Counted from the stretch's first letter, positions 7,132 through 49,700 are shown. The stretch is 64,000 nt of DNA from Candidatus Nomurabacteria bacterium (GCA_003155695.1 PMDZ01000006.1:20007-84006); one strand, 5' to 3'. Notes: generated by a model from the sequence alone, not told the origin. Translations and numbers: made by a program.

Positions 7132-7253
7132 ATCCCGTACGAGATCCACATGTTATCTTTTACAGAATAGTTAAAAATAATTATAAGGTTTATATTATAA
7201 ACAATAAATTAGTAAGAAACGTCCCATCTTTGAGGGACTATCTCGTACGGGAT
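7132..7253. promoter_or_regulatory. 14-bp perfect inverted repeat (ATCCCGTACGAGAT / ATCTCGTACGGGAT) bracketing the pilB-pilC intergenic spacer; the right arm overlaps the pilC ATG
   Basis: Arms at 7132..7145 and 7240..7253 read from the sequence. An inner hairpin GTCCCATCTTTGAGGGAC lies at 7221..7238. Confidence 0.4.
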
Positions 7254-14904: not shown

Positions 14905-16665
14905 ATGGAAGATCAGACCAAAATATGCCAAAACTGCAAAAATAAGTTCAACATCGAACCCGATGATTTTTCTTTCTACGAGAAAATGAAAGTTCCGGCA
15001 CCAACTTTTTGCTATCTTTGCAGAGTAGAGAGACGGCTGGCATTTCGAAACGAGAGAAAATTTTTCAGAGTCAAGGATGCTTTTACAGGTCTTGATATTT
15101 TTTCTCTTTACCCACCAGAAAGCGGGAAGAAATCAGTAACCGAAGAAGAATGGCACAAGGACAACTGGAACGAACTTGATTACGGCCGTGATTATGATTT
15201 TTCCATAAATTTTTTCAAACAGCTCTACAAATTGGAAAAAGAAGTGCCGATTTTCGCCCTTCGGGTTGAAGGCATGATCAATAGCTCCTATTGTGCCAAT
15301 GCTTCATATTTGAGGAATACTTACCTTTGTTTCAATTCCAATACTTCGGAAAGCTGTATGTACGGTAATGCCGTCGATTACAGTAAAGATTGTGTAGATA
15401 ACTCCCATGTCAATCATATGGAAAGATGTTACGAATGTTTCTGGATGCAGAATTGTTATCAATGTTATTTTACGATTATGTCGGCGGAATCGAGAAATTT
15501 GTGGTTCTGTCGAAATTGCCTTGGTTGTAACGATTGTTTTGGTTGTACCAACTTACGCAAAGCCTCATATTATATATTCAATAAACAATATTCAAAAGAA
15601 GACTATTTTTCGGAAATAGAAAAAATGAAATTGGATACGATATCCGGTCTTAAAAAGGCAAGAGAAGCTGCCAGAAATTTCTGGAAAACTCAACCGACAA
15701 AATACCAGCACGGCCTGAAAAATATTAATTCAACCGGTTCGTACGTTACCAATTGCAAGAATGTTAATGACAGTTTCCTTATCAGAGAAGGGGAAAATAT
15801 GCGTTATTGCCAGTATTTGCAGGTTCCAAAAAACAAAGATTGTTATGATACCACAGCCTGGGGGGATAATATGGAAATGCATTATGAAACTTGTCTTTGC
15901 GGCGAAAATTCATACAATCTTAAATTTTCAACCGACAGTTGGCCAAACTGCAAAAATCTCGAGTATTGTATAAGTTGTTTCAGTACATCCGATTGTTTTG
16001 CTTGCGTCGGTTTGAAGAAAAAACAATATTGTATTTTCAACAAGCAATATGGAAAAGACGAATATTTTGAAATGGTGGAAAAAATAAAAAAACAGATGGA
16101 TGATATACCGTATGTCGACAAAAAGGGGAGTGTCTATAAATACGGTGAATTTTTCCCGATTGAACTTTCACCGTTCGGTTACAACAATACGACATCTTTC
16201 CAATATTTCCCGATGACGAAAGTTAAAGCCGAGGAAAACGGCTACCCATGGATTGAAGTTCCGCGTGGTAAATATAATATCACCAAAAAAGCCTTGGAAT
16301 TACCCTATTCAATTAACGATGCGGATGAAAGCATTTTGGATGATGTCATCGAATGCAACAATTGTAAAAATCCTTACAAAATTCTGGAAGACGAATTTAA
16401 TTTTTATAAAAAAGAAAAAATACCGTTGCCGGATTTATGCGATGAGTGTCGTTTCAGAAGAAGAATCGAAGACAGATTAAAGTTTCAACTCTACGATAGG
16501 TCTTGTATGTGTTCAGGAGAAAAAGATGCCACTGGAAAATACAAAAATACCGTCAAACATGTCCACGGTGACAATTCTTGCGAAGAAAAATTCAAAACCG
16601 GCTACGGTTCGGAGAGAGGAGAGATAATCTATTGTGAGAAATGTTATCAGCAGGAAGTTTATTAA
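14905..16665 (+). CDS. Cysteine-rich protein, paralog 3 of 3 (586 aa)
   Basis: N-terminus CQNCKNKFNIEPDDFSFYEKMKVPAPTFCYLCRVERRLAFRNER. C-terminus EFNFYKKEKIPLPDLCDECRFRRR...ERGEIIYCEKCYQQEVY. The internal block QMDDIPYVDKKGSVYKYGEFFPIELSPFGYNNTT is conserved with paralogs 1 and 2. Confidence 0.8.
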   Translation: MEDQTKICQNCKNKFNIEPDDFSFYEKMKVPAPTFCYLCRVERRLAFRNERKFFRVKDAFTGLDIFSLYPPESGKKSVTEEEWHKDNWNELDYGRDYDFSINFFKQLYKLEKEVPIFALRVEGMINSSYCANASYLRNTYLCFNSNTSESCMYGNAVDYSKDCVDNSHVNHMERCYECFWMQNCYQCYFTIMSAESRNLWFCRNCLGCNDCFGCTNLRKASYYIFNKQYSKEDYFSEIEKMKLDTISGLKKAREAARNFWKTQPTKYQHGLKNINSTGSYVTNCKNVNDSFLIREGENMRYCQYLQVPKNKDCYDTTAWGDNMEMHYETCLCGENSYNLKFSTDSWPNCKNLEYCISCFSTSDCFACVGLKKKQYCIFNKQYGKDEYFEMVEKIKKQMDDIPYVDKKGSVYKYGEFFPIELSPFGYNNTTSFQYFPMTKVKAEENGYPWIEVPRGKYNITKKALELPYSINDADESILDDVIECNNCKNPYKILEDEFNFYKKEKIPLPDLCDECRFRRRIEDRLKFQLYDRSCMCSGEKDATGKYKNTVKHVHGDNSCEEKFKTGYGSERGEIIYCEKCYQQEVY

Positions 16666-20555: not shown

Positions 20556-20650
20556 AAATAGCTCCTCTCAGAGGGTACGAAAATTTTTTACTAAAAATTT
20601 TCTCAGTTTTCGCTCCGTCGAGCTCAAAAGCCCCTCTGGTAGGACTATTT
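20556..20650 (+). repeat. Copy A of the ~92-bp structured interspersed repeat (subfamily 1)
   Basis: atagctcctctcagagggtacgaaaattttttactaaaaattttctcagttttcgctccgtcgagctcaaaagcccctctggtaggactat. It is homologous to 42392..42486 and, in reverse orientation, to 43737.., 44941.. and 47766.. Confidence 0.8.
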
Positions 20651-20755
20651 CATTTCCTCCCTTATAAGTGAAGCAGGATTATTGAAATTATGAGTCGCGT
20701 CGGAGCCCTTTAGGGTAAAGCGCGAATAATTTTAATAATCCTGTGGAACGGCTAC

Positions 20756-22267: not shown

Positions 22268-22387
22268 ATAAACATCTCCGCAAATCTTATCAATAAAAAA
22301 GTCCTCGGACGAGGGAGGACGAGGAGCCAGACATTTTTTCTTGAAAAGATTTGCTACGATTTAAAAATCTTCACGACTGTGAGGATT

Positions 22388-23449: not shown

Positions 23450-26400
23450 TTGTATATTATGAGAAAATTAAAGTTCCTAAAACTCCATTGGGCAAAACTT
23501 CTTTCGGTATTCTTTTTAATATTACTTCTCGGAGCTTATGCCCATATTTTCGCTATTGACCGAAAATATAATCCGGGAGAAATATTGAACCCGGATTGTT
23601 TTCCGGGAGAAACAAATTGCACGGTTGATATTACAACTGGAAGTTCACAGTGGACGACAAATGGGTCTAGTATTTATTACAACACAGGGAATGTTGGAGT
23701 AGGGGTGATTGCACCGACAGCACAATTACAATTTAAAGCTGGAACTACTACTGCTGGAACTGCTCCGCTTAAATTCACTGTCGGAACAAATTTAACTAAT
23801 GCCGAAGCCGGAGCGATGGAATGGAATGGAACAAATCTTTTTATAACCCAAACATCAGGTCCAACTAGAAAAACAATTGCTTATACCACGGATATTTCAG
23901 ATAGTTCACCTATCACTATTGTTGATAGTACCAATCTTGTTTCGACCGGACTTCAGGCAGCTGGACCCGTTCCCTATGGAACACAAGATGCGATTATCAT
24001 TGGTCGCTGGGCAGGATTCAATATGATTTCCGGTTATAATTCAATTTTTTTAGGCCTTGAAGCTGGTGCTCAAGCCAATGCCGAGTCCTCTAATTTTATA
24101 GGACATGGCGCTGGTAGTGGTACTACATCTCAATATTCAAACTTTTTGGGTCATTTTGCTGGTGAAAATTCTACCTCAGCTAACTATTCAAATTTTATTG
24201 GTAGTGATGCTGGAGCGTCTACTTCCGCTACTTTTTCAAATTTCATCGGTTTTGTTGCTGGCCGCGATGCAACTTCCGCTTCCTATTCAAACTTTTTTGG
24301 GTCTAGCGCTGGTTCTTCTGCTGCTAATGCCAGCAATTCAAATTTTTTTGGTGCAGGCGCTGGAGCGAACGCCACTAATGCATCTTATTCAAATTTAATC
24401 GGTTTCAGAGCCGGACTATCTCCCATTAGTATTAATAACAGTATCGGTGCCAATAATATAATTATCGGGACAAACATTTCATTACCAACCGCAACAGCTA
24501 ATTCGATGAACTTGGGTGGTGTTTTGTTTGCCACCGGAACTTATGCAACTACAACAGGTAATCCATCAACCACAGCCGTTGCGACGGGTAAAGTTGGAGT
24601 CGGAGTTGTTTCGCCATCGGCAAGATTGCAACTTGCTGCCGGAACCGCTTCCGCCGGTACTGCTCCACTTAAATTAACTGCCGGGACAAACTTGGGAACA
24701 ACCGAAGCTGGAGCGATTGAATACGACGGTTCCCATTTATATTTTTCGGCCACAAATAATGGAGACAGATATCAACTGGACCAACAAGCAGATGGAATAG
24801 TAAGTTCCCCATGGTTAGCAAATGGTTCTGATATTTATTATGATGGTGGCAATGTCGGCATTGGAAATGATTCACCGACATCAAAACTTGACATCAAACT
24901 TGATTTGACAGTATCTTATAATCAAAGTTTTTCCGGTAGTGGATTAAATGATGCCATATATTCAGGAACATATTCTGGATCAAATCCTCCAAACGCTGTA
25001 ATTGTTCAAATAGATGGCGAAGGCACACCTGATACTTTCACATATTACGATAACCATTCAGATTGTTCTTATCCTAATGGATTTTCAATTCCAATTACCG
25101 GCTCGGCGCAATTAGTTTGCGATGGTATTTCTATTACATTTACAAATATAACTGGGCATCACAGTGGAGATACTTGGACATATGAAATTAACAGTCCGGA
25201 TTCTAATCCGATTATTAAAATAAGTGATAACACGGGCAATAATTACTTTACTGTTAATGCGGTTGCCGATAAATCAAATTTCCTAGGTACTAATGCTGGT
25301 AATGGTGCTGTCTCTGCTCATGATTCAAACTTCATCGGTACATCTGCTGGTAATGGTGCTGTCTCTGCTCATGATTCAAACTTCATCGGTACATCTGCTG
25401 GTTATGGTGCAACCTCAGCTTCCGGCTCAAACTTCTTAGGCCTAAATGCCGGTATTTATGCTACTGGTGCCCATAACTCAAACTTCTTAGGTCCTAGTGC
25501 TGGTAATGGTGCCACCTCTGCCATCTTTTCGAACTTTATAGGTACTGTTGCTGGTCTTAGTGCCACCTCCTCTTCCTATTCAAATTTTATAGGTAATGGT
25601 GCTGGATATCAAGCCACTTCTGCTTCTTACTCAAACTTCTTAGGGATAAATGCAGGTAATGGTGCTACCTCTGCTATCAACTCAAACTTCTTAGGTCCTT
25701 GGGCTGGTTCTGGTGCTATCAATGTTTCTTATTCAAATTTATTTGGCTATGAGACGGGGATGTCTTTTACTGGCAACAACATTGGCTCCAACAACATAAT
25801 CCTCGGAACAAGTATTTCTCTACCTAATGCGGCAACCAATGCTATTAATTTAGGAGGAGTCATATTTGCAACAGGGACACATTCTGACACAAATGGCATA
25901 TCTATCATTGCTGAAGCTACTGGCAAAGTTGGTATCGGAGTCGTCTCACCGTCAGCTCGCTTACAACTTGCTGCCGGAACCGCTTCCGCCGGTACTGCCC
26001 CACTTAAATTAACTGCCGGTACAAATCTTTCGACAACCGAAGCCGGAGCGATTGAATACGACGGTTCCCATTTATATTTTTCGGCCACAAATTCCGGAAG
26101 CCGTTACCAACTCGACCAGCAAGGTGGAACTCCTTCTCCTATTACTATTGTTAACACCTCAAATCTTTTTTCAACAGGAATTAGTGCTGGAACTGGGGTA
26201 ACTTCTACAACTGATTCAAACTTTTTTGGTACTGATGCAGGTGATTCTGCTACTGGTGCTTTTGGTTCAAACTTTTTTGGTCCATCTGCTGGAATTTCAG
26301 CCCCGGATGCTTTTTACTCAAACTTTTTTGGTTTACAAGCTGGGGCAGGGGCTAATGATGCCAGCAATTCAAATTTTTTAGGTCATAATGCTGGTGCTAG

Positions 26401-27781
26401 TGCCATCAATGCCGCATTATCAAACTTCTTAGGACAATCCGCAGGTTTAGGAGCTGTAGGAGCTTCTGAGTCAAACTTCATAGGTGATTCTGCCGGATAT
26501 CAAGCCACCTCTGCTCATGATTCAAACTTCTTAGGAAATGCTGCTGGTCAAGGTGCTTCCCTTGCCTCTTACTCAAATTTATTTGGTTACCAATCGGGAA
26601 GGTCTTTCCCTGTAGATACTCCCACTAACAATATCGGTTCCAACAACATAATCATCGGAACAAATATTTCTTTACCTAATGCGACTGCAAATACCATGAA
26701 CTTAGGTGGAGTTCTTTTTGCCACAGGAACATATGCAACGACGACTGGCGACCCATCTATCACCGCAGTCTCAGGTGGCAAAGTCGGTATCGGCGTCGTT
26801 TCGCCATCATATACTCTCCAAGTCGGAAACTCATCTATCTCCGGAGTAGTCGCCCGATTTGAAAATAGTGTCGGAACTTGTGACATCAATCCTACTACCT
26901 CATCGGTTGGTTGTTCTTCCGACATAAGATTAAAGAAAAATATAACTACCCTCGATAATACAGAATTTGCTCTCTCAACTGTCCCTGATATGACAGGTAA
27001 ATCAACATTGGAAAAAGTTCTGAATCTCACTCCGGTCACATACAACTGGAATAGTGAAAGTGATACCGACCAGAAACACATTGGGTTCATCGCCCAAGAA
27101 ATGGAACAAATATTCCCTGATTTGGTCAGCACCGACCCGGTAACAGGTCTTAAGTCTCTTAGTTACGCAAACATGACGCCATACCTAGCCAAAGCCATAC
27201 AGGAGATGGATTTAAAAATTACAGATATTAATAATCAGGAATTAGAAAATAGTTGGAGGGATAGCATACTTGCTTGGTTTAAAAATACCTCAAATGGAAT
27301 TACTGAATTTGTCTCAAGTATTCTTCGAGCCAAAGATAAACTTTGTATCGGAGAGGGAAGTGACGAAGTTTGTATAACAAAGGAAGACTTATTGCAAATG
27401 AAAAATAATGCCGGACTAAACGCCGGAACAGCTGCCGTGCTTCCGACTGTTGATAACTCCGGCTCATCCGGGACAGATAATTCAACTGCTGGGACATCGG
27501 ATACTTCGGGAACAGGAGCATCCAATACCGGAACAACGACCGACACCACCGGTACGACAGGGGGGAACGACGGTAACAATACCGATACAACCGGAGGAAA
27601 CACAAATAACACAACCACAGATACATCCACCACAAATACTCCCGATACTGGAACGACGAATATAAATGCTGGTAATGATACGACCGGTAATGCAAGTGGT
27701 GATACGACAAATACGGATACAACCAACACTAATAACAATAATAGTGGAACGGATAATCAAAATAATGACCTCGGTAATTAA
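23450..27781 (+). CDS. Giant (1443 aa) secreted repetitive surface protein with a C-terminal phage-tail-fibre-type intramolecular chaperone (Peptidase_S74-like) domain and a T/N/G/D-rich tail
   Basis: A signal peptide, then three modules each starting with GKVG(V/I)GVVSPSARLQLAAGTASAGTAPLKLTAGTNL..TEAGAIEYDGSHLYFSATN. Each module is followed by 10-15 tandem 17-aa repeats (SNFIG..AG.GA.SA..). Near the C-terminus is CSSDIRLKKNITTLDN...LNLTPVTYNWN...HIGFIAQEMEQIFPDLV...LSYANMTPYLAKAIQEMDLKI, the S74 chaperone signature. Confidence 0.75.
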   Translation: MYIMRKLKFLKLHWAKLLSVFFLILLLGAYAHIFAIDRKYNPGEILNPDCFPGETNCTVDITTGSSQWTTNGSSIYYNTGNVGVGVIAPTAQLQFKAGTTTAGTAPLKFTVGTNLTNAEAGAMEWNGTNLFITQTSGPTRKTIAYTTDISDSSPITIVDSTNLVSTGLQAAGPVPYGTQDAIIIGRWAGFNMISGYNSIFLGLEAGAQANAESSNFIGHGAGSGTTSQYSNFLGHFAGENSTSANYSNFIGSDAGASTSATFSNFIGFVAGRDATSASYSNFFGSSAGSSAANASNSNFFGAGAGANATNASYSNLIGFRAGLSPISINNSIGANNIIIGTNISLPTATANSMNLGGVLFATGTYATTTGNPSTTAVATGKVGVGVVSPSARLQLAAGTASAGTAPLKLTAGTNLGTTEAGAIEYDGSHLYFSATNNGDRYQLDQQADGIVSSPWLANGSDIYYDGGNVGIGNDSPTSKLDIKLDLTVSYNQSFSGSGLNDAIYSGTYSGSNPPNAVIVQIDGEGTPDTFTYYDNHSDCSYPNGFSIPITGSAQLVCDGISITFTNITGHHSGDTWTYEINSPDSNPIIKISDNTGNNYFTVNAVADKSNFLGTNAGNGAVSAHDSNFIGTSAGNGAVSAHDSNFIGTSAGYGATSASGSNFLGLNAGIYATGAHNSNFLGPSAGNGATSAIFSNFIGTVAGLSATSSSYSNFIGNGAGYQATSASYSNFLGINAGNGATSAINSNFLGPWAGSGAINVSYSNLFGYETGMSFTGNNIGSNNIILGTSISLPNAATNAINLGGVIFATGTHSDTNGISIIAEATGKVGIGVVSPSARLQLAAGTASAGTAPLKLTAGTNLSTTEAGAIEYDGSHLYFSATNSGSRYQLDQQGGTPSPITIVNTSNLFSTGISAGTGVTSTTDSNFFGTDAGDSATGAFGSNFFGPSAGISAPDAFYSNFFGLQAGAGANDASNSNFLGHNAGASAINAALSNFLGQSAGLGAVGASESNFIGDSAGYQATSAHDSNFLGNAAGQGASLASYSNLFGYQSGRSFPVDTPTNNIGSNNIIIGTNISLPNATANTMNLGGVLFATGTYATTTGDPSITAVSGGKVGIGVVSPSYTLQVGNSSISGVVARFENSVGTCDINPTTSSVGCSSDIRLKKNITTLDNTEFALSTVPDMTGKSTLEKVLNLTPVTYNWNSESDTDQKHIGFIAQEMEQIFPDLVSTDPVTGLKSLSYANMTPYLAKAIQEMDLKITDINNQELENSWRDSILAWFKNTSNGITEFVSSILRAKDKLCIGEGSDEVCITKEDLLQMKNNAGLNAGTAAVLPTVDNSGSSGTDNSTAGTSDTSGTGASNTGTTTDTTGTTGGNDGNNTDTTGGNTNNTTTDTSTTNTPDTGTTNINAGNDTTGNASGDTTNTDTTNTNNNNSGTDNQNNDLGN
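25295..25396 (+). repeat. Perfect 51-nt tandem duplication (2 units) inside the giant surface-protein gene
   Basis: gctggtaatggtgctgtctctgctcatgattcaaacttcatcggtacatct occurs twice back to back, encoding AGNGAVSAHDSNFIGTS x2. Diverged copies flank it. Confidence 0.9.
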
Positions 27782-30700
27782 AATATTTTTCAAATATATA
27801 CTCCTCATTATTTTAATTGGCGGAGCTTTTGGGGTTTTTGCCTCGACTACCAACGGAACGATAGATGCGGGCAATCACACGGCGCTTCTTTGCATGAATG
27901 ATATTTGTTCCGTCACCACCAGAATAAATTTTTTGACGACCAACGGCAGAGCTGTACATGTCACAAATAGTGCGTTAACCGGTGAAATATGGTCGGAACA
28001 GGTAGGTTGGATAAATTTAAATCCGACAAATAGCGGGGTAGCCAATACAACGAGAGGTATTCTTTCCGGCGATGCTTGGGGAGAAAATGCTGGTTGGATA
28101 AATTTTGATCCCTATAATGGTGGAGTAGTCATAAATAATAGGGGTGAATTTGTCGGCTTTGCTTGGAGTCAAAATTACGGATGGATTAAATTTGATTGTA
28201 CTGTTGCGAATGCTTGTGTCAAAACTGATTGGCGCCCGAGTAATGATGGGGGTGGTGGAGGAGGGCCACCAGTGGTGGATATATGCCCAAATATTGCCGG
28301 GAATCAAACATTAATACCGGATGGTCTTGTTATCAATGCTCTTGGGCAATGTGTTTCCCCAGAACAATGTAATGTCCTAGATGGTGCACTTAAGCAACCA
28401 CTTGATGTCATGATTATAATTGACAAATCAGGCAGTATGGCTGGCACCAAACTGTCTCAAGCCAAAACCGCCGCTACAGCCTTCATCAATAATCTGGTTC
28501 TCGGTTCTGACCGGGTCGGATACGTCTCATATTCTACGACGGCAACACTCGAAAATGGGCTGACAACATCTTTTGATACAATTAAAGCAAAGATAGCAAG
28601 TACTGTATCAAATGGAAATACGAATATCGGAGGAGCGGCAAGAATTGCTTATCAAGAAATGTTGATCAATGGTCGGGCGGGAGTTAAGCATGTCATCATT
28701 ATTCTGACCGATGGACAAGCAAATGTCTCGGATGTTAGAACTCTGACCCCAAATCAATACGCGATCAATCAATCGGACCTGGCCAAACTCCGAGGCATGA
28801 TTGTTTATTCTATCGGACTGGGGACAGATGTAGATTCCGATCTTCTTTCTTCTATGGCAACCTTGCCAAGTTATTTTTATAATTCTCCGACTGGTAGCGA
28901 CCTTTCAAATATTTATCTGCAAATTGCCGCTATTGAATGTACCGCTGCCCCTTCAAAGGTTTTCGATACGGTTATTTATGATGCAAATAGAAATGGATTA
29001 TATGATACCAATGAAAGGGGATTAGCTGGATCTATTATCTCCTTAACAAGTAGTGATGGCAGTCAACAAACAAGAACGATGACAACGCTTGCCGACGGGA
29101 GTTTCCTTTTTGATGCTGTAACACCAGGGAACTATTCAGTCTGCAATACATCACCTTCGGGGATGTATCAAACCAAACCAGTTTCAAATGGATGTTTTGA
29201 TATAAGTGTTGTTCAAGGTATTAATGTCACAGATCTCAAATTTTTAGTTACTGGTAACCAACCATTTTGTTCGCTTAATCCAAATGACCCATCATGTGAT
29301 GTTTGCCCAAACATTTCAGGTATCCAAAGTACAATTCCGAATGGATTTACCATTAACTCAAGTGGTAATTGCGTTCCAACCCCAACATTCTGCGAACAAA
29401 ATCCCACCGACCCATCATGTAATCCAACATTCTGCGAAAACAATCCCAATGACCCATCATGTGATGTTTGCCCAAATATTTCAGGTACCCAAAGTACAAT
29501 TCCGGATGGATATACCTTGAACTCAAGTGGTAATTGTGTTCCGGCTCTAACATTTTGTGAACAAAATCCCACCGACCCATCTTGTATAACTCCAACGTTC
29601 TGTTCACTTCACCCGAGTGACTCAACATGTGTAGAGCCAAGTTTCTGTACACTTCATCCCACAGACCCATCTTGTATAACTCCAACATTCTGCACACTTC
29701 ACCCTAACGATCCGTCATGCACAACCCCATCATTTTGTGCTCTACATCCCACCGACCCATCTTGTATAACTCCGGCATATTGTGCTCTTCACCCGACTGA
29801 CCCATCATGTTCAACGCCGGAGATATTTTGTGCACTTCATCCGACCGACCCATCGTGCATTAATCCGACATTTTGTTCTCTCCATCCGACGAATATATTA
29901 TGTGTAATTAAAGATACAACATCCGGTATTTTAGAAACAATAAATGGAAATCTTAATAATACTATTACCGATGTAGCCAAAAATGTTGCCGAGGCAACTG
30001 AAATTATCTTTACAAATCCAGTCGGGAAAGTTGTCACTAAAATAGTTGAAACAACCGGAGCTGTCACTGGTGCAATCGGCATTGCCGGCTTAGTTTTCTC
30101 CGGACCAATTGCTCTGGCTGATGCTTTTCTAATTCCAATTCGGTTGTGGAGTCTTCTTCTTGCTCTGTTTGGAATCAAAAAAAGGAAAACTCCATGGGGT
30201 ACAGTTTATGACAGTGTCACAAAGCAGCCCCTTGACCCGGCATATGTCGTTTTACAGAATTTAGATGGCAAAGAAGTTGCGACTTCGATTACCGACCTTG
30301 ATGGTAGATATGGTTTTCTTGTTCCACCTGGAGCGTATAGAATTATCGCCAGAAAAACAAATTATGAATTCCCTTCAAAGAAATTACTTGATAGACAGAA
30401 AGATGAATTATATGATGATTTGTATTTCAATGAAATCATAGAGGTTAAAGAAGGGGGAATCATAACCCGTAATATCCCAATGGATCCGATTAAGTTTGAT
30501 TGGAATGAATTTGCCAAGCGCGATCGCAAATTAATGAAGTTCTACTCGAGACGCAGTCTTTGGGTTGCTCTTATTTCGGATATTCTGTTTTTCCTTGGTC
30601 TAATCATCTCTACAATTGCGACAATTATTACGCCAGTTACATACAATATCATCGTTCTCGTTGTTTATCTAGTTTTACTCATATTAAGAGGGACGATATT

Positions 30701-30968
30701 AAAACCTAGAATTTATGGTCTTGTAAATCAAAAAGAAAACAAAGATCCATTGTCTTTTGCTATCATGAGAATTTTCTTTGCCGGAAGTGACCATGAAATA
30801 GCACACAAAGTCACAGACCAAACAGGTAGGTATTATTGTCTTGTTCCAAACGGCAGGTACTATACAAAGATTGAGGTAAAAAACCCTGATGAAAGTTATA
30901 GTTTAGTTCATATATCAGATCCAATTGAAGTTAAAAAGGGGTATATAAACAAGAAATTTGAGGTGTAA
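27765..30968 (+). CDS. Large multi-domain surface protein (putative adhesin): tryptophan-rich GWI(N/K)F triple repeat, vWA domain, SdrD-B/Cna-B-like domain, a roughly 10-unit CxLHPTDPSC repeat array, a carboxypeptidase-regulatory-like domain and TM segments
   Basis: The start is taken at MTSVIKIFFKYILLIILIGGAFGVFA (27765) rather than the upstream ORF start 27666. The vWA MIDAS motif is DVMIIIDKSGSM...ILTDGQAN. The SdrD-B-like motif is DANRNGLYDTNERGLAGSI. The Cys repeat is TPTFCTLHPNDPSCTTPSFCALHPTDPSC... Confidence 0.7.
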   Translation: MTSVIKIFFKYILLIILIGGAFGVFASTTNGTIDAGNHTALLCMNDICSVTTRINFLTTNGRAVHVTNSALTGEIWSEQVGWINLNPTNSGVANTTRGILSGDAWGENAGWINFDPYNGGVVINNRGEFVGFAWSQNYGWIKFDCTVANACVKTDWRPSNDGGGGGGPPVVDICPNIAGNQTLIPDGLVINALGQCVSPEQCNVLDGALKQPLDVMIIIDKSGSMAGTKLSQAKTAATAFINNLVLGSDRVGYVSYSTTATLENGLTTSFDTIKAKIASTVSNGNTNIGGAARIAYQEMLINGRAGVKHVIIILTDGQANVSDVRTLTPNQYAINQSDLAKLRGMIVYSIGLGTDVDSDLLSSMATLPSYFYNSPTGSDLSNIYLQIAAIECTAAPSKVFDTVIYDANRNGLYDTNERGLAGSIISLTSSDGSQQTRTMTTLADGSFLFDAVTPGNYSVCNTSPSGMYQTKPVSNGCFDISVVQGINVTDLKFLVTGNQPFCSLNPNDPSCDVCPNISGIQSTIPNGFTINSSGNCVPTPTFCEQNPTDPSCNPTFCENNPNDPSCDVCPNISGTQSTIPDGYTLNSSGNCVPALTFCEQNPTDPSCITPTFCSLHPSDSTCVEPSFCTLHPTDPSCITPTFCTLHPNDPSCTTPSFCALHPTDPSCITPAYCALHPTDPSCSTPEIFCALHPTDPSCINPTFCSLHPTNILCVIKDTTSGILETINGNLNNTITDVAKNVAEATEIIFTNPVGKVVTKIVETTGAVTGAIGIAGLVFSGPIALADAFLIPIRLWSLLLALFGIKKRKTPWGTVYDSVTKQPLDPAYVVLQNLDGKEVATSITDLDGRYGFLVPPGAYRIIARKTNYEFPSKKLLDRQKDELYDDLYFNEIIEVKEGGIITRNIPMDPIKFDWNEFAKRDRKLMKFYSRRSLWVALISDILFFLGLIISTIATIITPVTYNIIVLVVYLVLLILRGTILKPRIYGLVNQKENKDPLSFAIMRIFFAGSDHEIAHKVTDQTGRYYCLVPNGRYYTKIEVKNPDESYSLVHISDPIEVKKGYINKKFEV
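29570..29890 (+). repeat. DNA-level array of about 39-nt repeats encoding the C-x-LHPTDPSC-ITPTF peptide units
   Basis: Near-identical units read from the sequence, e.g. ttctgcacacttcaccctaacgatccgtcatgcacaaccccatca and ttttgtgctctacatcccaccgacccatcttgtataactccggca. Confidence 0.7.
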
Positions 30969-41839: not shown

Positions 41840-42391
41840 ATGGCAAAACAAGAATTAAGAGGAGAAAGGAATTGGTACGCGATTCATACTTACGCTGGTT
41901 ATGAAAATGCCGTCATGCGTAATCTAAAACAGCGTATCGATTCGCTTGGAATGAATGACAAAATTTTCAGTGTTGTCGTCCCAATCGAGAAAAAGATTAA
42001 GATAAAAGCTGGGAAGCGTGTCGAAGTTGAAGAGAAAGTTTACCCGGGTTATGTCCTCGTCGATATGATTGTTGACGATAATTCTTGGTATGTTGTTCGT
42101 AATACTCCTAGAGTCACAGGTTTTGTCGGAGCCGGAGTCAACCCGGTTCCGCTTGCCAAGAATGAAGTCGATGAACTTTTCAGTCGAATGGATAAAGTTG
42201 ATACGAAAAATAAACACCAAATTGATGTTGAGATTGGGGAGATGGTTCGTATTGCCGATGGCCCATTCAAAGATTTGGAAGGTAAGGTGAGCGATATAGA
42301 CAGAGAGCGAGGTAAAATAAAAGTTCTGGTTTCAATGTTTGGTCGTGAGACTCCAGTCGAGTTGGACTTTCTACAAATCAAGAAAATTTAA
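41840..42391 (+). CDS. nusG: Transcription termination/antitermination factor NusG
   Basis: An NGN domain (NWYAIHTYAGYENAV) and a C-terminal KOW motif (GEMVRIADGPFKDLEGKV). Lies in the secE-nusG-rplK order. Confidence 0.9.
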   Translation: MAKQELRGERNWYAIHTYAGYENAVMRNLKQRIDSLGMNDKIFSVVVPIEKKIKIKAGKRVEVEEKVYPGYVLVDMIVDDNSWYVVRNTPRVTGFVGAGVNPVPLAKNEVDELFSRMDKVDTKNKHQIDVEIGEMVRIADGPFKDLEGKVSDIDRERGKIKVLVSMFGRETPVELDFLQIKKI

Positions 42392-42486
42392 AATAGCTCT
42401 TCCCAAAGGGTACTCAAATTTTTTGCTAAAAATTTGCTCAGTTTTCGCTCCGTCGAGCTCAAAAGCCCCTTTGATAAGACTATTCT
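42392..42486 (+). repeat. Copy B of the ~92-bp structured interspersed repeat (subfamily 1), abutting the nusG stop codon
   Basis: aatagctcttcccaaagggtactcaaattttttgctaaaaatttgctcagttttcgctccgtcgagctcaaaagcccctttgataagactat. Confidence 0.8.
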
Positions 42487-42578
42487 AAATTTTCTTTATT
42501 CTTCTTGATTTGTAAGGATAATTATGATAGATTAAGTCTGTTACGCTAGCTTCAAATTAATAAAAAATATACATTTAT

Positions 42579-43001: not shown

Positions 43002-43018
43002 ATAAAAATTATTTAACA

Positions 43019-43069
43019 TCTCAAAAGAAACAAACGAGAGCCATGGCTCTCGTTTGTTTCTTTTGAGAT
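43019..43069. terminator. 51-bp perfect palindrome between convergent rplK and efp (bidirectional terminator)
   Basis: atctcaaaagaaacaaacgagagccatggctctcgtttgtttcttttgagat, a 23-bp stem centred on CCATGG. Confidence 0.8.
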
Positions 43070-43654: not shown

Positions 43655-43736
43655 ATATTTTCTAATTATTTAATAACTAAAGGAGTATAACAGAATAAGT
43701 CATTATTTTCAAGCTAGGATAACAAAAAACAAAAAA

Positions 43737-43827
43737 TAGTCTTATCAGAGGGACTTGGGAGCGCGACGGCGCGAGCACGAGGAATTTTTCAGCAGAAAAA
43801 TATCCGTGCCCTCTGGGAAGAGCTATC
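43737..43827 (-). repeat. Copy C of the structured interspersed repeat (subfamily 2, reverse orientation), between recA and efp
   Basis: Its reverse complement reads atagctcttcccagagggcacggatatttttctgctgaaaaattcctcgtgctcgcgccgtcgcgctcccaagtccctctgataagactat. Confidence 0.8.
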
Positions 43828-43846
43828 TTTTGTTTTTATCTTTAAA

Positions 43847-44940: not shown

Positions 44941-45037
44941 AATAGTTTTCCCAAAAGGGGCTTGTGAACTCGACGGAGTGAACACGGAGGAAATTTTTAG
45001 TAGAAAATTTCCGTACCCTTTTTTGAATACTATTTTT
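44941..45037 (-). repeat. Copy D of the structured interspersed repeat (subfamily 1, reverse orientation), upstream of recA
   Basis: aatagttttcccaaaaggggcttgtgaactcgacggagtgaacacggaggaaatttttagtagaaaatttccgtacccttttttgaatactat matches the reverse complement of copies A and B. Confidence 0.75.
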
Positions 45038-45500: not shown

Positions 45501-47741
45501 TTAATTGTTATTTTTTATTTCTTCTTCCTCAGTATGGTCCATTGGCTTCTCGAGTATCTCTCTTGGCTTTGCTCCATTACCGGCTCCTATCACTCCGCGT
45601 TCTTCAAGCATATCTATCAATTTTGCTGCCCGAGCATATCCAACTCCCAATTTTCTTTGTAAGTATGAAGTCGAAGCTTTTCCGGCTTCCATGACAGTTA
45701 ATCTTGCATCTTCGTAAAGGTCATCATCTCCGTCATCAATGCTATCTGTAAAAAGGCTACCATTTCCTTTATCTATATTACCACTTAAATCAATTGTATT
45801 CGGTATTTCGTCAATATACGCTTTCCTTAAATATTCTACCACTTTTTTGACTTCTTCTTCAGAGATAAAGGCACTTTGCAATCTCTCCGGGTGAGGAGTC
45901 TCGGCACACGAATAAAGCATATCTCCGGCGCCAAGAAGCTTCTCGGCTCCGCCTTGGTCCAGTATTGTTCGGGAATCTATCTGTGAAGAAACCTGAAGTG
46001 CAATACGCGTAGGAATATTGGCCTTGATTAACCCGGTAATTATATTTACCGATGGTCTTTGGGTGGAAAGGATGAGGTGTATACCCACAGCCCGGGACAT
46101 TTGGGCCAAGCGAATAATAGCACTTTCCAATTCTCTTGGGTAGGCGGTCATAATATCAGCCAGTTCATCCACAACGATAACAATGTAAGGAAGACGTTCA
46201 GCTTCTACTCCACTTTTCTTGGCTTTTTCATAAACATTGGCATGATATGATTCGATATTCTGGACCGATTCAGCCTGTAAAATATCGTAGCGTCTGTCCA
46301 TTTCGCGCGCGGCCCACTTGAGAGAAAGAATTGTTTTCTTTGCTTCGGTTATAACCGGTGTAAGCAAATGAGGAATTTTATTATATAGAGTAAGTTCGAC
46401 GCGCTTTGGGTCAACCATTATAAATTGCAAATCCTGTGGTCCATTCCTATAGAGTAGTGATGTGATAATGGAGTGAATGGTTACAGACTTACCTGAGCCG
46501 GTAGTTCCGGCAACAAGTAAGTGTGGCATCTTGGCAAGATTGCCGAATATTGATTTACCGGAAAGTCCACGCCCGAGTGCGATAGTGAGTGGCTTTTGAG
46601 AATTTTGGAATTTTTCATCGGCAAGAAGGGTCGCCAGTCCGACAGTTGATTTTACTTTATTCGGAATTTCAATTCCGACAAGCGATTTCCCAGGGATAGG
46701 AGCTTCGATACGGATAGTTTTTGCCATCAAAGCAAGAGCGAGTTCATTCTGAAGTCCGACGATTCGGGAAAGTTTAACTCCCTGAGCCGGCTTGAGTGAA
46801 TAACGAGTGACGGTCGGACCGACAGTTACTTCATCCATCTCGACAGAAATTCCGAAGGTAAATAAAGTTCTTTGAATGGTATTCATATTACCTTTCATGT
46901 CCCCGGTGTTTGCAACACCTTTATCCTTCTCGAGAAGTGATAGTGGGGGAGGGATGTAGTTCGTACTGAACTTCTTTACTTTGCCGACTGCCTTTGTTAT
47001 CTCATCTTCTTCTTTTGTTTCGTCATGAGGCATTTGTTCTACACTCTTATCTTTTTCGGCTTCTTTTTTAATTTCCACAATATCCTCCTCAATAGTTTCT
47101 TCAACTTCTTCTTTCTTTAGTTTTAGAGAACGAACATCCGATTTAAGGAAATCCCAAATCTTTCGGAATAGGTCCATTAAGTTTGGTTTCTCATCAAACA
47201 AAATAATAAGGGATGCGATAAGTATGGCACCAAGTAAAAGTATGGAAGCATATATTCCGAAAAGTTTTATAAACGGCCACGAGACTATGCTACCGAGATA
47301 TCCACCAAAAGTAATATTTATAGATTCCCCTTTTCCATTACTTGCGATGTCCATTATGGAGAGGGAAGAGAGTAGAGCGACAAAACCGAAAATAGCGTGA
47401 ACTTTTGCAATTTGTGGTTTCTCTTTTTTCATAAAAGAAAAACCGATAAGCACAAGCAAAATAGGCAATAGATAATATCCAACTCCCAAGAATGAATTTA
47501 ATATTGTATAAATAAAATTTCCGACAACTCCCGCCATTCTGAAAATTGAAAGTATAACGAGAAGTCCGAGGACCATAAAACCAATACCCCAGATACTGTA
47601 TCGAGTCTCTTCTTTTAATTCTATTTTTTTACCATTTTTTTTCTTTCCCTTCTTTGATGTTACTTCATCATCAATATCCTCATCAGTATCTTTTTTAGCC
47701 ATATATGTACACATTATATCATAATTTTTTTGCCTCCACAC
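45501..47741 (-). CDS. ftsK: DNA translocase FtsK/SpoIIIE
   Basis: N-terminal TM helices, a linker, and the motor domain with Walker A GTTGSGKS plus a C-terminal winged-helix gamma domain. The true start may be the internal MAKKDTDED. Confidence 0.9.
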   Translation of the reverse strand: MWRQKNYDIMCTYMAKKDTDEDIDDEVTSKKGKKKNGKKIELKEETRYSIWGIGFMVLGLLVILSIFRMAGVVGNFIYTILNSFLGVGYYLLPILLVLIGFSFMKKEKPQIAKVHAIFGFVALLSSLSIMDIASNGKGESINITFGGYLGSIVSWPFIKLFGIYASILLLGAILIASLIILFDEKPNLMDLFRKIWDFLKSDVRSLKLKKEEVEETIEEDIVEIKKEAEKDKSVEQMPHDETKEEDEITKAVGKVKKFSTNYIPPPLSLLEKDKGVANTGDMKGNMNTIQRTLFTFGISVEMDEVTVGPTVTRYSLKPAQGVKLSRIVGLQNELALALMAKTIRIEAPIPGKSLVGIEIPNKVKSTVGLATLLADEKFQNSQKPLTIALGRGLSGKSIFGNLAKMPHLLVAGTTGSGKSVTIHSIITSLLYRNGPQDLQFIMVDPKRVELTLYNKIPHLLTPVITEAKKTILSLKWAAREMDRRYDILQAESVQNIESYHANVYEKAKKSGVEAERLPYIVIVVDELADIMTAYPRELESAIIRLAQMSRAVGIHLILSTQRPSVNIITGLIKANIPTRIALQVSSQIDSRTILDQGGAEKLLGAGDMLYSCAETPHPERLQSAFISEEEVKKVVEYLRKAYIDEIPNTIDLSGNIDKGNGSLFTDSIDDGDDDLYEDARLTVMEAGKASTSYLQRKLGVGYARAAKLIDMLEERGVIGAGNGAKPREILEKPMDHTEEEEIKNNN

Positions 47742-47765
47742 CTTTTTCTCTTTGGCGTATCTCTG

Positions 47766-47858
47766 AATAGTCTTATTGAAGGGGCTTGTGAACTCGACGG
47801 AGCGAACACTGAGCTAATTTCTACCAAGAAATTAACGTACCCTTCAAGAAGAGCTATT
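47766..47858 (-). repeat. Copy E of the structured interspersed repeat (subfamily 1, reverse orientation), upstream of ftsK
   Basis: aatagtcttattgaaggggcttgtgaactcgacggagcgaacactgagctaatttctaccaagaaattaacgtacccttcaagaagagctattc. Confidence 0.75.
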
Positions 47859-47884
47859 CATATTTAATACAGAGCAGTTCCGAG

Positions 47885-47975
47885 ATAGCTCTTCTCAGAG
47901 AGCACGGATATTTTTCTACTGAAAAATTCCTCGTGCTCGCGCCGTCGCGCTCCCAAGTCTCTCTGATAAGACTAT
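47885..47975 (+). repeat. Copy F of the structured interspersed repeat (subfamily 2, forward orientation), flanked by a 12-bp inverted repeat (gagcagttccga / tcggaactgctc)
   Basis: atagctcttctcagagagcacggatatttttctactgaaaaattcctcgtgctcgcgccgtcgcgctcccaagtctctctgataagactat. Nearly identical to copy C, with compensatory changes (CAGAGAG/CTCTCTG versus CAGAGGG/CCCTCTG). Confidence 0.8.
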
Positions 47976-48072
47976 TTCGGAACTGCTCCCAAACATCTTG
48001 CGCAGAATATTTTTCGGTATATAATGGACACATTAAAGACATATTATCCCGTCAAGGCGGGGAAAAAGACAG

Positions 48073-48903
48073 ATGGATAATAAAAAAGACATACAACAGA
48101 CAAGCATAAATACTTATGGACAACCAAATGTCTCTGACAGTAAATCATTAGTGGACAGGCCTGTTTATGAGTTTATCAACAAAAAGACAGAAAAATTAGT
48201 TACTGCTCTCTATATGGTTACCGACTGCATGGATACCGACGATGCTCTCAAAGGGAAACTTCGTCAGTTAGGTGTAGAATTACTGTCCGATATGTATAAG
48301 CTTTCAACCTTATCCCCAATGGACAAATATACTCGTATTTCTTCCTCTCTTGCCCGTATTGATGAGATACTTTCTTTCATTGAGATTACTTACACAATTG
48401 GTTTTATTTCGGAAATGAATACCGTCATTTTGAAGAAAGAGTTCACAATTTTAATAGAGGAGCTAGAATCTCACCAAAAAGAAAACAAGCATTTCACATT
48501 TACCTTAGACGAGAAGATATTTGATTTACCGGAACTTCAAATCGCAGGGAAAGATTCAGATTACAAAGGGCAATCATTTATAAAGGACAAAAGGACATCT
48601 TTTAATAGTATGTCCTTTATGGATAATAAAAGTCCTTTACAAAAATCCCAACCTAAAAGGACAATATCTCACGAATCAAATTTTGCCGATAGGCAAGAGA
48701 GGACGAATAAGATATTAGCTCTTATAAAAGAAAAGAAGGACTTGCCTACTGGAGAAGTAGGAGTTTCGATAAAAGACATCTCTCTTTCTTTTACAGACTG
48801 CTCGGAAAAGACAATTCAACGCGAACTGAACTCACTTGTCCAGAAAGGTCAACTCAAGAAAACCGGGGCTAAACGCTGGTCGCGATACTCTATTGTTATT
48901 TAA
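48073..48903 (+). CDS. Hypothetical protein with a C-terminal winged-helix-like DNA-binding region
   Basis: A 276-aa protein. The C-terminus ...LPTGEVGVSIKDISLSFTDCSEKTIQRELNSLVQKGQLKKTGAKRWSRYSIV resembles wHTH recognition-helix/wing patterns. The N-terminal domain is unrecognised. Confidence 0.35.
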   Translation: MDNKKDIQQTSINTYGQPNVSDSKSLVDRPVYEFINKKTEKLVTALYMVTDCMDTDDALKGKLRQLGVELLSDMYKLSTLSPMDKYTRISSSLARIDEILSFIEITYTIGFISEMNTVILKKEFTILIEELESHQKENKHFTFTLDEKIFDLPELQIAGKDSDYKGQSFIKDKRTSFNSMSFMDNKSPLQKSQPKRTISHESNFADRQERTNKILALIKEKKDLPTGEVGVSIKDISLSFTDCSEKTIQRELNSLVQKGQLKKTGAKRWSRYSIVI

Positions 48904-49013
48904 AAAAGACGACAATATTATTGTTTTGTGACGACGGGTGGGGGCGTGCCGTTCCGAGGTAACCCGAGGAATGGGGTTAAGGAGGAATAAAACAATAATA
49001 TTGTCGTCTTTTT
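48903..49013. repeat. 25-bp perfect inverted repeat (AAAAAGACGACAATATTATTGTTTT) enclosing a GC-rich 61-nt loop, starting at the stop codon of the preceding gene
   Basis: Arms at 48903..48927 and 48989..49013. The loop reads gtgacgacgggtgggggcgtgccgttccgaggtaacccgaggaatggggttaaggaggaat, roughly 62% GC in a roughly 35% GC genome. Confidence 0.7.
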
Positions 49014-49328
49014 CTGTTTTAGGCTATTTCAAGGAAACCCTTATATTCCCAGTTATCCACACCTTTTGGTCAAATCCTATGTATCTATTGCATATTATAA
49101 ACCTGGAGTATATAATATCTGTGTATATTGTTGCTGGTATTTTTTTACCATATGTGATAATATATAGTATCCCTGTGTACTTGTTTCTAATAAGCGCATT
49201 TGGGAAGAGAAGATCATTGAAAATAAAATACCTCTATATTCTAATACCAAGAAGGTAGTGGCCGTTTCGTTTTCACTGGTCGGATCCGTTTTGTTTCTTT
49301 TCAATTTTATTTTTCCTCAATCGCCCGA

Positions 49329-49700
49329 TTGATAGAGATTGGGTGAGTCTTACTTTGATAGAGGTGAGATTATCCCGTTGATAGAGACGGGTGATAAAAG
49401 AAAAATAAAAATAAAGATTTCAAAATGTGGTATCGGCCCTGTCGACAAGGCAGATATGCTTGTCTCGTCTTTTCTTTACTCTCTCGAAAAGAGATTCTTA
49501 AGAAGGGTAAAGGCAGGCAGTGTTTTTTAGTTTAGTTATTCAAGTAATTTATTTTTTGATACTTATTCCGTCATCATTTTTTTGATAGAGAAATTGTGGA
49601 GGGAAGAGAATAAAATAAATTATGAGATGGAAGGTTTATGTTTGTTATTTTACGGTTTTGAATTTTGTTACTTTTTCCATCGCAACTTTTTTGATAGAGA
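49329..49700 (+). promoter_or_regulatory. Five direct copies of TTGATAGAG in the roughly 960-bp noncoding region upstream of the S-layer-like gene
   Basis: Three copies lie at 26- and 23-bp spacing (49329, 49355, 49378), each followed by a GGTGA-containing tail. Further copies are at 49581 and 49692, each preceded by a T-run. They fall in different codon phases of any overlapping ORF, so they are nucleic-acid-level repeats. Confidence 0.5.

Follow-up and report, generated by a model that had tools for sequence, protein, structure and literature searches.

The 370-nt spacer between ftsK and its divergent neighbour p276, in a 64,000-nt stretch of a Candidatus Nomurabacteria genome (GCA_003155695.1 PMDZ01000006.1:20007-84006; hereafter the window, with positions counted from its first letter), carries two adjacent copies, E and F, of an intergenic hairpin repeat. 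We regard the pair, with a probability of roughly 0.6, as two separate hairpin repeats that settled in a permissive slot and whose flanking arms grew after insertion, with no role specific to ftsK. On this reading each copy would fold on itself as a long outer stem bearing two small hairpins, copies would gather in permissive intergenic slots, usually a few bases past a stop codon, and E and F would occupy the sole unconstrained part of the divergent spacer. The 12-bp inverted repeat that brackets F would be an ordinary copy-specific basal stem, most likely grown after insertion when a replication polymerase switched template on the extruded hairpin and copied one flank inverted onto the other side; the same inverted-repeat chemistry would let the core flip within its arms. 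An earlier sequence-only reading had described the pair as a composite inverted structure, arisen by nested insertion or at an insertion hotspot, that could form a large cruciform or terminator. The features of the locus are:

45501-47702, minus strand: ftsK, 733 aa, with its ATG at 47702, assigned with Pfam
47703-48072: the ftsK/p276 spacer, 370 nt
47713-47721, minus strand: putative ftsK promoter, extended -10 box TGATATAAT, from consensus and conservation
47766-47859, minus strand: copy E, full length, oriented as ftsK, with 0-5 bp of flanking stem
47860-47871: residual 12 nt between E and the left arm of F
47872-47883: left arm of the F basal stem, GAGCAGTTCCGA, its last base being F model position 1
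47883-47976, plus strand: copy F, full length, co-oriented with p276
47977-47988: right arm of the F basal stem, TCGGAACTGCTC
47998-48025, plus strand: putative p276 promoter (TTGCGC, 16 nt, TATAAT), from conservation, followed by a conserved leader to 48072
48073-48903, plus strand: p276, 276 aa, the divergent neighbour of ftsK

Repeat finding and nhmmer searches recovered exactly six copies of a repeat of about 94 nt in the window (E-values 4e-23 to 9e-28), and a covariance model made from these six copies scored E at 105 bits and F at 101 bits. This bears out the reading of E and F as repeat copies and shows both to be full-length members of one family. They lie head to head, as had been noticed, with E on the minus strand, F on the plus strand and their 5' ends facing each other; the pair is indeed a close one, although the cores are 23 nt apart and not the roughly 26 bp given before. 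Their assignment to different subfamilies is roughly right, in that F is 96% identical to copy C of the window, while the identity of E to the other copies lies between 73% and 83%, with F at 73%. The gene beside E is ftsK, as had been called, since its product carries the FtsK 4TM, alpha, FtsK_SpoIIIE and gamma domains in Pfam.

The composite of E and F with its right arm (47766-47988) measures 223 nt, in keeping with the size of about 220 bp given earlier, but it does not fill the spacer, of which 147 nt remain. These 147 nt hold the sole blocks conserved across relatives, namely two putative divergent promoters and the p276 leader. The extended -10 box on the ftsK side ends 10 nt ahead of the ATG and is kept in almost all orthologous spacers, a placement which implies that the ftsK mRNA would be leaderless or nearly so. 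On the p276 side relatives read TTGC.., 16/17 nt, TATAATGGACACATTAAAGACA, a variable hairpin, AAAAGACAG and the ATG; a simple promoter scanner missed this promoter because its -35 box matches the consensus at only 3/6 positions. Both promoters are thus predictions from consensus and conservation, not mapped starts. F together with its right arm stops 9 nt upstream of the p276 -35 box, so that E and F lie wholly between the two predicted promoters, upstream of each, and would be outside the ftsK transcript as predicted.

The p276 leader itself (48020-48100) has the same organization in all relatives, namely TATAATGGACACATTAAAGACA, a hairpin whose sequence varies while its pairing is kept, AAAAAGACAG and the ATG. 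AAAGACA occurs three times in this region, the third copy within the first codons. The window p276 had no Pfam match; a few of its homologues match the DeoR-type helix-turn-helix family PF08220, and the leader may for that reason be an autoregulatory site.

The comparison of orthologous regions upstream of ftsK, which the sequence-only reading had proposed as a check, was made on loci collected by a protein-guided scan of metagenome contigs (FtsK 69-89% identical; L numbers below denote loci used for comparison). The order p276, ftsK, a 137-aa gene, recA and efp is conserved in relatives, with rplK and nusG beyond, and the divergent pairing of ftsK and p276 is kept. About 21 orthologous ftsK/p276 spacers were recovered, ranging from 136 to 687 bp, and only their two ends are conserved. 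The element is absent from 13 of them, one of which, at 136 bp, retains only the two promoter blocks. In the other 8 a single copy or two are present, whose position and orientation vary and whose arms are their own, and in one relative the pair has the opposite, convergent arrangement. A spacer of 248 bp separates the two genes in P0003 (77-kb contig of JGI 3300075153; p276 80% identical). Elsewhere the variable middle of the spacer holds other hairpin families, DnaA-box-like TGTGGATAA motifs or a GIY-YIG gene. Such presence and absence, combined with the variable placement in the middle of the spacer, points to an insertion hotspot and not to a conserved leader; the hotspot suggestion thus holds, and the empty sites favour insertions. 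No direct target-site duplication was seen at E, F or copy B.

The same behaviour was observed at the neighbouring slots. Between the 137-aa gene and recA, empty alleles measure 1-30 bp and lack the arms seen in occupied alleles, and occupied alleles carry the hairpin repeat in at least five arm contexts and in both orientations, or else a hairpin from one of three different families. Occupancy follows this pattern at the nusG-rplK and recA-efp slots too.

Two of the other occupants of the ftsK/p276 spacer can be described further. In L122, L123 and L130 an inserted 84-aa GIY-YIG nuclease gene (L122 9742-9996; Pfam E = 1e-16), flanked by a 12-bp inverted repeat CCCGTTAGAGAT, separates the promoter motif of ftsK from its ATG. 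Perfect DnaA-box-like TGTGGATAA(CTTTT) motifs occur in the spacers of L125, L126, L133, L134, L138, L143, L145 and L158, and are absent from the window spacer.

All six window copies are predicted to adopt the same fold, a long outer stem with a one-base bulge carrying two hairpins, which together form a three-way junction. One of the inner hairpins is A/U-rich; the other is short, GC-rich and closed by a CGUC loop. The fold z-scores of the six copies range from -5 to -11, with both strands folding about equally well; E folds at -39.2 kcal/mol (z -5.95) and F with its arms at -62.1 kcal/mol (z -10.8). In a set of 32 copies taken from the ftsK neighbourhoods of relatives, and not chosen by any sequence pattern, 94.3% of the cells were paired and changes on both sides were seen at 29 of the 32 pairs, against at most 58% paired when the partner was slid by 1-3 columns; the alignment was fitted to the model and so favours the structure somewhat. 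Among 106 unique copies, three or four Watson-Crick pair types were found at most positions of the outer stem, indicating that the pairing is conserved there and the sequence is not. The junction and the small GC-rich hairpin are kept across hosts in copies that range from 33% to 59% GC, the conservation of that hairpin in the large set being partly an artefact of the search pattern. When the 261-nt region of the pair was folded, it formed two independent hairpins side by side, which speaks against the single large cruciform that had been suggested.

For the analysis of the arms the remaining copies of the window are needed, which are:

20556-20649, plus strand: copy A, between convergent comEC-like and sod-like genes
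42391-42484, plus strand: core of copy B, with arms 42372-42514
43735-43828, minus strand: copy C, between recA and efp, with arms AAAAACAAAAG / TTTTTGTTTT
44941-45035, minus strand: copy D, between the 137-aa gene and recA

The bracket of F, GAGCAGTTCCGA and TCGGAACTGCTC, is a perfect 12-bp inverted repeat just as first described, and extends to 17 nt at 94% identity when the ATAG/CTAT ends of the element are counted. This 12-mer is unique to the site: it was found nowhere else in the window or at unrelated loci, and only in contigs of the same population. To place it in the context of the family, the 5' flank of each of 114 copies was matched with its own 3' flank, allowing at most one mismatch and leaving model position 1 unpaired, and the 3' flanks of other copies served as the control. 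The stem reaches 6 bp or more beyond the core in 54% of the copies (controls, 1.6%), and 12 bp or more in 27% (controls, 0.01%). The length of the arms is distributed continuously from 0 to 19 bp, with about a quarter of the copies having less than 4 bp and E having almost none. The arms average 69% A+T and differ among copies even within one genome, as seen in GAAAATTTA of copy B, AAAAACAAAA of copy C and GAGCAGTTCCGA of F. Given that copy-specific arms are a property of the whole family, the bracket of F is ordinary and gives no sign of F having landed inside another element. The nested insertion proposed earlier therefore finds no support, E and F simply standing side by side.

The origin of such an arm can be followed at copy B. 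The final 20 nt of nusG, stop codon included, serve as its left arm, and the 30 nt of its right flank (42485-42514) consist of two overlapping inverted copies of these same 20 nt. The C-terminus of NusG (...LDFLQIKK, then I or L and the stop) is conserved in 13 of 13 relatives, whether the element is present or absent. In four relatives with an empty nusG-rplK slot (L122, L133, L151 and L158) the stop codon TAA is followed directly by GATAATATAAGTCTGTTACGC, without an inverted arm. The window slot instead reads TAA, the core, CTAAATTTTCTTTATTCTTCTTGATTTGTA and then AGGATAAT..., where the CTAAATTTTCTTTATTCTTCTTGATTTGTA part is made up of inverted copies of TACAAATCAAGAA and GAAAATTTA. As the right arm is missing from the empty sites and is inverted from a conserved gene end, this comparison of alleles shows it to have been made from the flanking DNA, and not to have pre-existed there. 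Copy B thus displays both marks of template switching, an arm that is an inverted copy of its neighbour and the absence of that arm from the empty allele. Three reports (PMC8794818, PMC8604942, PMC13100816) describe template switching as a process that creates, extends and homogenises the arms of inverted repeats and inverts the spacer between them, and we infer that this is how the arms of the present family arise.

Other copies offer further support. In four of them an arm overlaps the stop-codon end of a flanking open reading frame (ORF). At L094 the opposite flank carries the last codons of the gene in inverted form, which is suggestive; the pilB-like C-terminus concerned is too little conserved relative to its window paralogue to be called ancestral. 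A compensatory change from C-G to T-A in the flanking stem distinguishes copy D from its orthologue in L123. Mismatches within the arms comprise 7 G.T and 11 A.C, and this lack of a preference for G-U fits an origin at the level of DNA.

The surroundings of copy B have two other features. In the region corresponding to 42372-42560, relatives with an empty slot have a promoter-like TTGCAA -17 nt- TAATAT across the nusG stop codon. A Leu codon CTA in the window nusG destroys this TTGCAA -35 box, and the inverted arm laid down beside copy B provides a TTGATT that precedes TAGATT by 17 nt, so that the arm may have rebuilt the rplK promoter. The rplK leader that follows (42515-42578, AAGTCTGTTACGCTAAAGCTTCAAATTATTAAG) is conserved in all relatives without a match in Rfam, and may be an autoregulatory leader of the kind associated with ribosomal proteins.

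Close strains suggest that the orientation of the element can change at a given site. Look-ups with exact protein matches retrieved the same E/F arrangement from several assemblies of one population, which is present in samples ERZ27256921, ERZ27248622, JGI 3300046505, 3300029987 and SRR6960558. In L203 (p276 88% identical) the E end, F and the arms are those of the window, save for one changed arm base. L202, whose p276 is 98% identical, is a contig that starts inside the element, and its model positions 1-43 lie on the opposite strand. This half of the core differs from F at 2 of 43 bases and abuts CTCGGAAATTCTC, which is homologous to TTCGGAACTGCTC in the right-arm region of F in the window. 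The most economical reading is that an F-type core has been inverted inside its arms between the window and L202, the alternative being two independent insertions into one palindrome; under either reading the orientation at the F site is not fixed.

E and F belong to a wider class of close pairs. Nine such pairs, with members 20-86 bp apart and 45-77% identical, were all inverted and none direct: seven are tail to tail and two head to head like E and F, and the type of pair is independent of the direction of the flanking genes. Copies that lie one gene apart are often 88-99% identical. This suggests local copying or gene conversion between nearby copies, which could account for the 96% identity of C and F.

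The family was delimited by scanning a degenerate 23-mer from the core over the species genomes of GTDB, which gave at least 112 matches. More than 100 full-length copies were confirmed with the covariance model, all of them in metagenome-assembled genomes (MAGs) of Patescibacteria, which number in the dozens and often have several copies each. The MAGs are labelled Paceibacterota, Nomurabacteria, Adlerbacteria, Vogelbacteria, Yonathbacteria, Minisyncoccia, Patescibacteria and, in third-party annotation (TPA) records, Saccharibacteria. Six matches to the pattern fell outside the candidate phyla radiation (CPR), of which five had no match to the model and the sixth was not searched with it. Viral contigs yielded 0 matches, and a viral origin was set aside. 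Rfam 15 at gathering thresholds gave 0 matches over the entire window, and in E-value mode only noise across 47700-48080 (at most 16.7 bits, E at least 1.2); ARAGORN found no tRNA or tmRNA in the window. We found no description of the family in the literature on repeats, miniature inverted-repeat transposable elements (MITEs), repetitive extragenic palindromes (REPs) or structured RNA motifs of Parcubacteria and Patescibacteria, and it is apparently a previously undescribed family. The description that suits it best is that of a small, structured intergenic repeat: its branched tip is conserved, and its basal stem is peculiar to each copy and, in copy B at least, was made from flanking DNA.

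Neither E nor F has the usual attributes of a terminator, which the pair had been suggested to form. No T-run follows either stem, F being followed by CCCAAAC and E by CAGAGAUAC, a terminator scanner reported none at 47600-48200, and both copies are upstream of the predicted promoters. Across the family, 16% of the copies are followed within 8 nt by 5 T or more, versus 11% in the background. A canonical intrinsic terminator was hence rejected for want of a U-tract and for the mixed orientation of the copies. Resemblances to terminators do exist, both being stable stem-loops typically about 15 nt past stop codons, but the present family differs in lacking a consistent U-tract, in its branched tip, in occurring in either orientation and in its presence in divergent promoter spacers, where termination would make little sense.

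We weighed the preferred reading against several rivals, the most substantial of which holds that the element is a functional structured nucleic acid selected by the host, either a cis-acting RNA (a 3'-end stabiliser, an RNase site or an insulator) or a protein-binding module, in which case E and F would insulate the two divergent promoters from read-through. We consider this unlikely, but far from negligible. Several observations count in its favour, and some of them also weigh against our own reading. Covariation is strong in all three helices, and this, taken with the deep conservation of the core, argues that something selects the structure, be it a host function or a signal for mobilisation. 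The junction and the GC-rich hairpin are also retained over copies of widely differing GC content. There are also weak signs of a role for one strand. In the core helices of the modelled strand there are 124 G-U against 60 A-C, an excess due mainly to two positions in the A/U-rich hairpin. The median distance to the upstream co-oriented stop codon is 15 nt, and between genes of the same direction 36 copies are co-oriented and 18 opposed, by crude ORF calls. Each of the six window copies is co-oriented with an adjacent gene, and E and F each face their own promoter. These hints that one strand has a role count for less than the free orientation of the element at orthologous sites: it stands in either orientation in the same spacer of relatives, once as a convergent pair, the type of pair is unlinked to gene direction, and the F-type core is flipped in a close strain. 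Many close relatives, moreover, do without the element at each slot, there is no U-tract, and part of the apparent conservation of the GC-rich block reflects how the large set was gathered. Other points also tell against our own reading. Copy B is the only case in which the origin of an arm is cleanly demonstrated; E and F have yielded no empty allele, and F no ancestral one. Copies in the large set were collected by means of the core pattern, and the comparisons draw entirely on MAGs and metagenome contigs. The window and the segments between neighbouring copies held no recognisable mobilising enzyme. Nor does random accumulation in its simple form account for all nine close pairs being inverted, for which the loss of direct pairs through slippage would be a plausible filter.

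The bracket of F could, by a different account, be a pre-existing palindrome (a hairpin, an operator or a terminator), the element preferring to insert into the tips of hairpins. Many solitary perfect palindromes do exist in the window and in relatives, for example one of 52 bp at 43018-43069. In the recA-efp slot of L133 a solo hairpin (AAAAAACAAAAG...CTTTTGTTT) has a stem that starts with the same A-rich 11-mer AAAAACAAAAG as the arm of copy C; this fits insertion into an existing hairpin and makes such a course possible for some copies, F included, which is again a point against arms grown after insertion. Copies in L148 and L152 have other palindromes nested in their loops, and a palindromic target would explain the two orientations seen in the window and L202. 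The likeness between copy C and L133, on the other hand, rests in an A-rich, low-complexity 11-mer, the copy B arm is an inverted end of nusG where four empty orthologous sites show no palindrome, the short empty slots between the 137-aa gene and recA lack the arms of occupied alleles, and arm lengths are spread continuously, with about a quarter of the copies below 4 bp. We therefore hold a pre-existing palindrome to be doubtful as the source of the bracket. A pair of ordinary MITEs moved by a DDE transposase, or a REP/REPIN (REP doublet) mobilised by a RAYT (REP-associated tyrosine transposase), appears improbable. The element is small, non-coding, multi-copy and polymorphic for presence, it has terminal inverted repeats, and its close pairs are always inverted as in REP doublets; yet the flanks are inverted and not directly duplicated, it is terminal pairing and not terminal sequence that the family conserves, the members of doublets are divergent and variably spaced, and the window and the segments between neighbouring copies have no transposase or RAYT-like gene. 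We find hardly any room for the proposal that the composite is a conserved leader or regulatory region of ftsK, or one cruciform of about 220 bp. The composite does adjoin ftsK, and there is some complementarity between E and F (44 nt at 77%), but most relatives lack it, the smallest spacer makes do with promoter blocks, the predicted ftsK promoter lies between E and the ATG, and the fold resolves into two separate hairpins. The conserved leader was accordingly rejected on its absence, its variable placement and its position upstream of the predicted -10 box, and the single E:F cruciform on folding. Returning to the two separate repeats, the pair most likely has no regulatory role specific to ftsK and is best read as selfish or neutral hairpin DNA, at most a generic structural element that acts irrespective of orientation.

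The candidates among known mobile elements were rejected on the following grounds. No transposase or integrase domain, including the Y1 transposase domain, was found by Pfam among the window genes examined, whole genomes not having been searched, and the segments between near-identical neighbouring copies hold ordinary housekeeping genes with no transposase or RAYT-like gene, which leaves no autonomous parent element there. A DDE-type MITE is contradicted by inverted flanks, by terminal repeats that vary in sequence and by the lack of a parent insertion sequence (IS) in the window; a REP or REPIN, by a unit that is a 94-nt three-way junction and by pairs that are divergent (45-77%) with gaps of 20-86 bp. 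An integron attC site was discarded because the AATAG...CTATT ends vary across the family and the copies are dispersed, in both orientations, among housekeeping genes.

The comparison with these systems is nevertheless instructive. Like REPs, bacterial interspersed mosaic elements (BIMEs) and REPINs, the family consists of short non-coding intergenic hairpin repeats in many copies, often after genes and with inverted neighbour pairs, whose structure is conserved above sequence. A REP, however, is a plain palindrome of 20-40 nt that has a conserved GTAG foot and is mobilised by a RAYT of the Y1 type, and REPIN doublets are near-identical, whereas the present family has a larger branched unit, dissimilar pairs, a basal stem unique to each copy and no RAYT in view. 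With bacterial MITEs (Correia elements of Neisseria, RUP and BOX of Streptococcus, ERIC/IRU of enterobacteria) it shares its size, terminal inverted repeats, a stable fold if transcribed, insertion by genes and promoters, and presence or absence between strains. In MITEs the ends are conserved in sequence and correspond to those of a parent IS, and the target site (TA, for instance) is duplicated directly, in contrast to the variable terminal stem, conserved apical domain and inverted flank duplications found here. attC sites are alike in size range (57-141 bp), in being imperfect palindromes recognised by structure and in folding as single strands; their conserved core sites RYYYAAC/GTTRRRY, co-oriented arrays beside an integrase gene and cassettes were not seen for this family. 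Hairpins shaped by template switching, or quasipalindrome correction, resemble it in their copy-specific perfect stems, arms inverted from a neighbour, compensatory changes and an invertible middle. That literature, however, deals with a mutational process on arbitrary inverted repeats, not with a dispersed family that has a conserved apical module, and the link drawn here comes from sequence patterns.

A more speculative possibility, which we advance only tentatively, is that the family represents an undescribed type of hairpin module, mobile or functional and specific to Patescibacteria, with an apical junction recognised by an enzyme acting on hairpins or single strands or by an RNA-binding protein. 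Such a module would gain, during or following integration, an inverted duplicate of its target flank (an "inverted target-site duplication"), and its core could flip between two orientations within that stem. If so, the orientation state of E and F could differ between cells. For ftsK itself the result is a deflating one, as the composite is repeat DNA between two promoters, and neither leader nor operator. The family is of more interest than the locus, being structurally conserved over many lineages of Patescibacteria without an Rfam model. It provides unusually clean natural cases of stems grown by inverted copying, including that of a coding end, and of the inversion of a hairpin tip from one close strain to another. 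It also fragments metagenome assemblies, several contigs breaking inside F. Given the very small genomes concerned, the persistence of several hairpin families in the same slots needs explanation, for which a tolerance of long palindromes, a mobilising enzyme or a use of hairpins by the host are candidates.

The genes of the window are those of a housekeeping CPR chromosome: type IV pilus genes, tpi, pgk, recJ, rnhA, comEC, sod, rpsL-rpsG-fusA, secE-nusG-rplK, efp, recA, ftsK and surface-polysaccharide genes. Several further hairpins lie among them. The 52-bp palindrome at 43018-43069 (26-nt arms, no spacer; -37.9 kcal/mol, z -12.8) stands between convergent rplK and efp, and is probably a bidirectional terminator. 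A second hairpin family (GCAGGATTATTGAAAT...CGCGTCGGAGCCC-loop-GGGTAAAGCGCG...) occurs at 20673-20744, directly beside copy A, and in relatives in the slot between the 137-aa gene and recA (L124, L141, L130, L133), in the nusG-rplK slot (L124, L130) and in the ftsK spacer (L129). A third family (AAAAAAGTCCTCGG...GGAGCCAGACATTTTTT) was found at 22280-22354, in the nusG-rplK slot of L139, in the slot between the 137-aa gene and recA of L134 and L135, and in the ftsK spacer of L152. Its window and L139 copies are identical, long arms included, at non-orthologous sites, and the hairpin of this family seems to move in its entirety. Other hairpins with long stems, whose tips are unrelated, were noted at 48903-49013, 7132-7253 and 49300-49415; one of them, with 25-bp perfect arms, comes right after the p276 stop, one follows a pilB-like gene with 14-bp perfect arms 94 nt apart, and one is an imperfect hairpin of 128 nt.

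Hairpins also occur within hairpins, in the form of extra palindromic inserts in the loops of family copies (L148 6448-7016, L152 2595-2723, L068 1299-1462, L024 3796-3915). In L148 a palindrome of about 100 bp takes the place of the small hairpin, and in L152 and L153 the insert is in the loop of the A/U hairpin. Nested palindromes and partial duplications leave L152, L153 and L148 too rearranged to give clean insertion boundaries.

Repetition of another kind is seen in the coding regions of the window. Three paralogous proteins of about 570-590 aa (1298-3043, 3626-5332 and 14905-16665) share repeated blocks of DNA; the first two were scanned and had no Pfam match. A surface-type protein of 1443 aa (23450-27781) has 51-nt (17-aa) periodic repeats and a Peptidase_S74 chaperone domain, and another of 1100 aa (27666-30968) combines VWA, SdrD_B and CarboxypepD_reg domains with 45-nt repeats rich in Cys, His and Pro.

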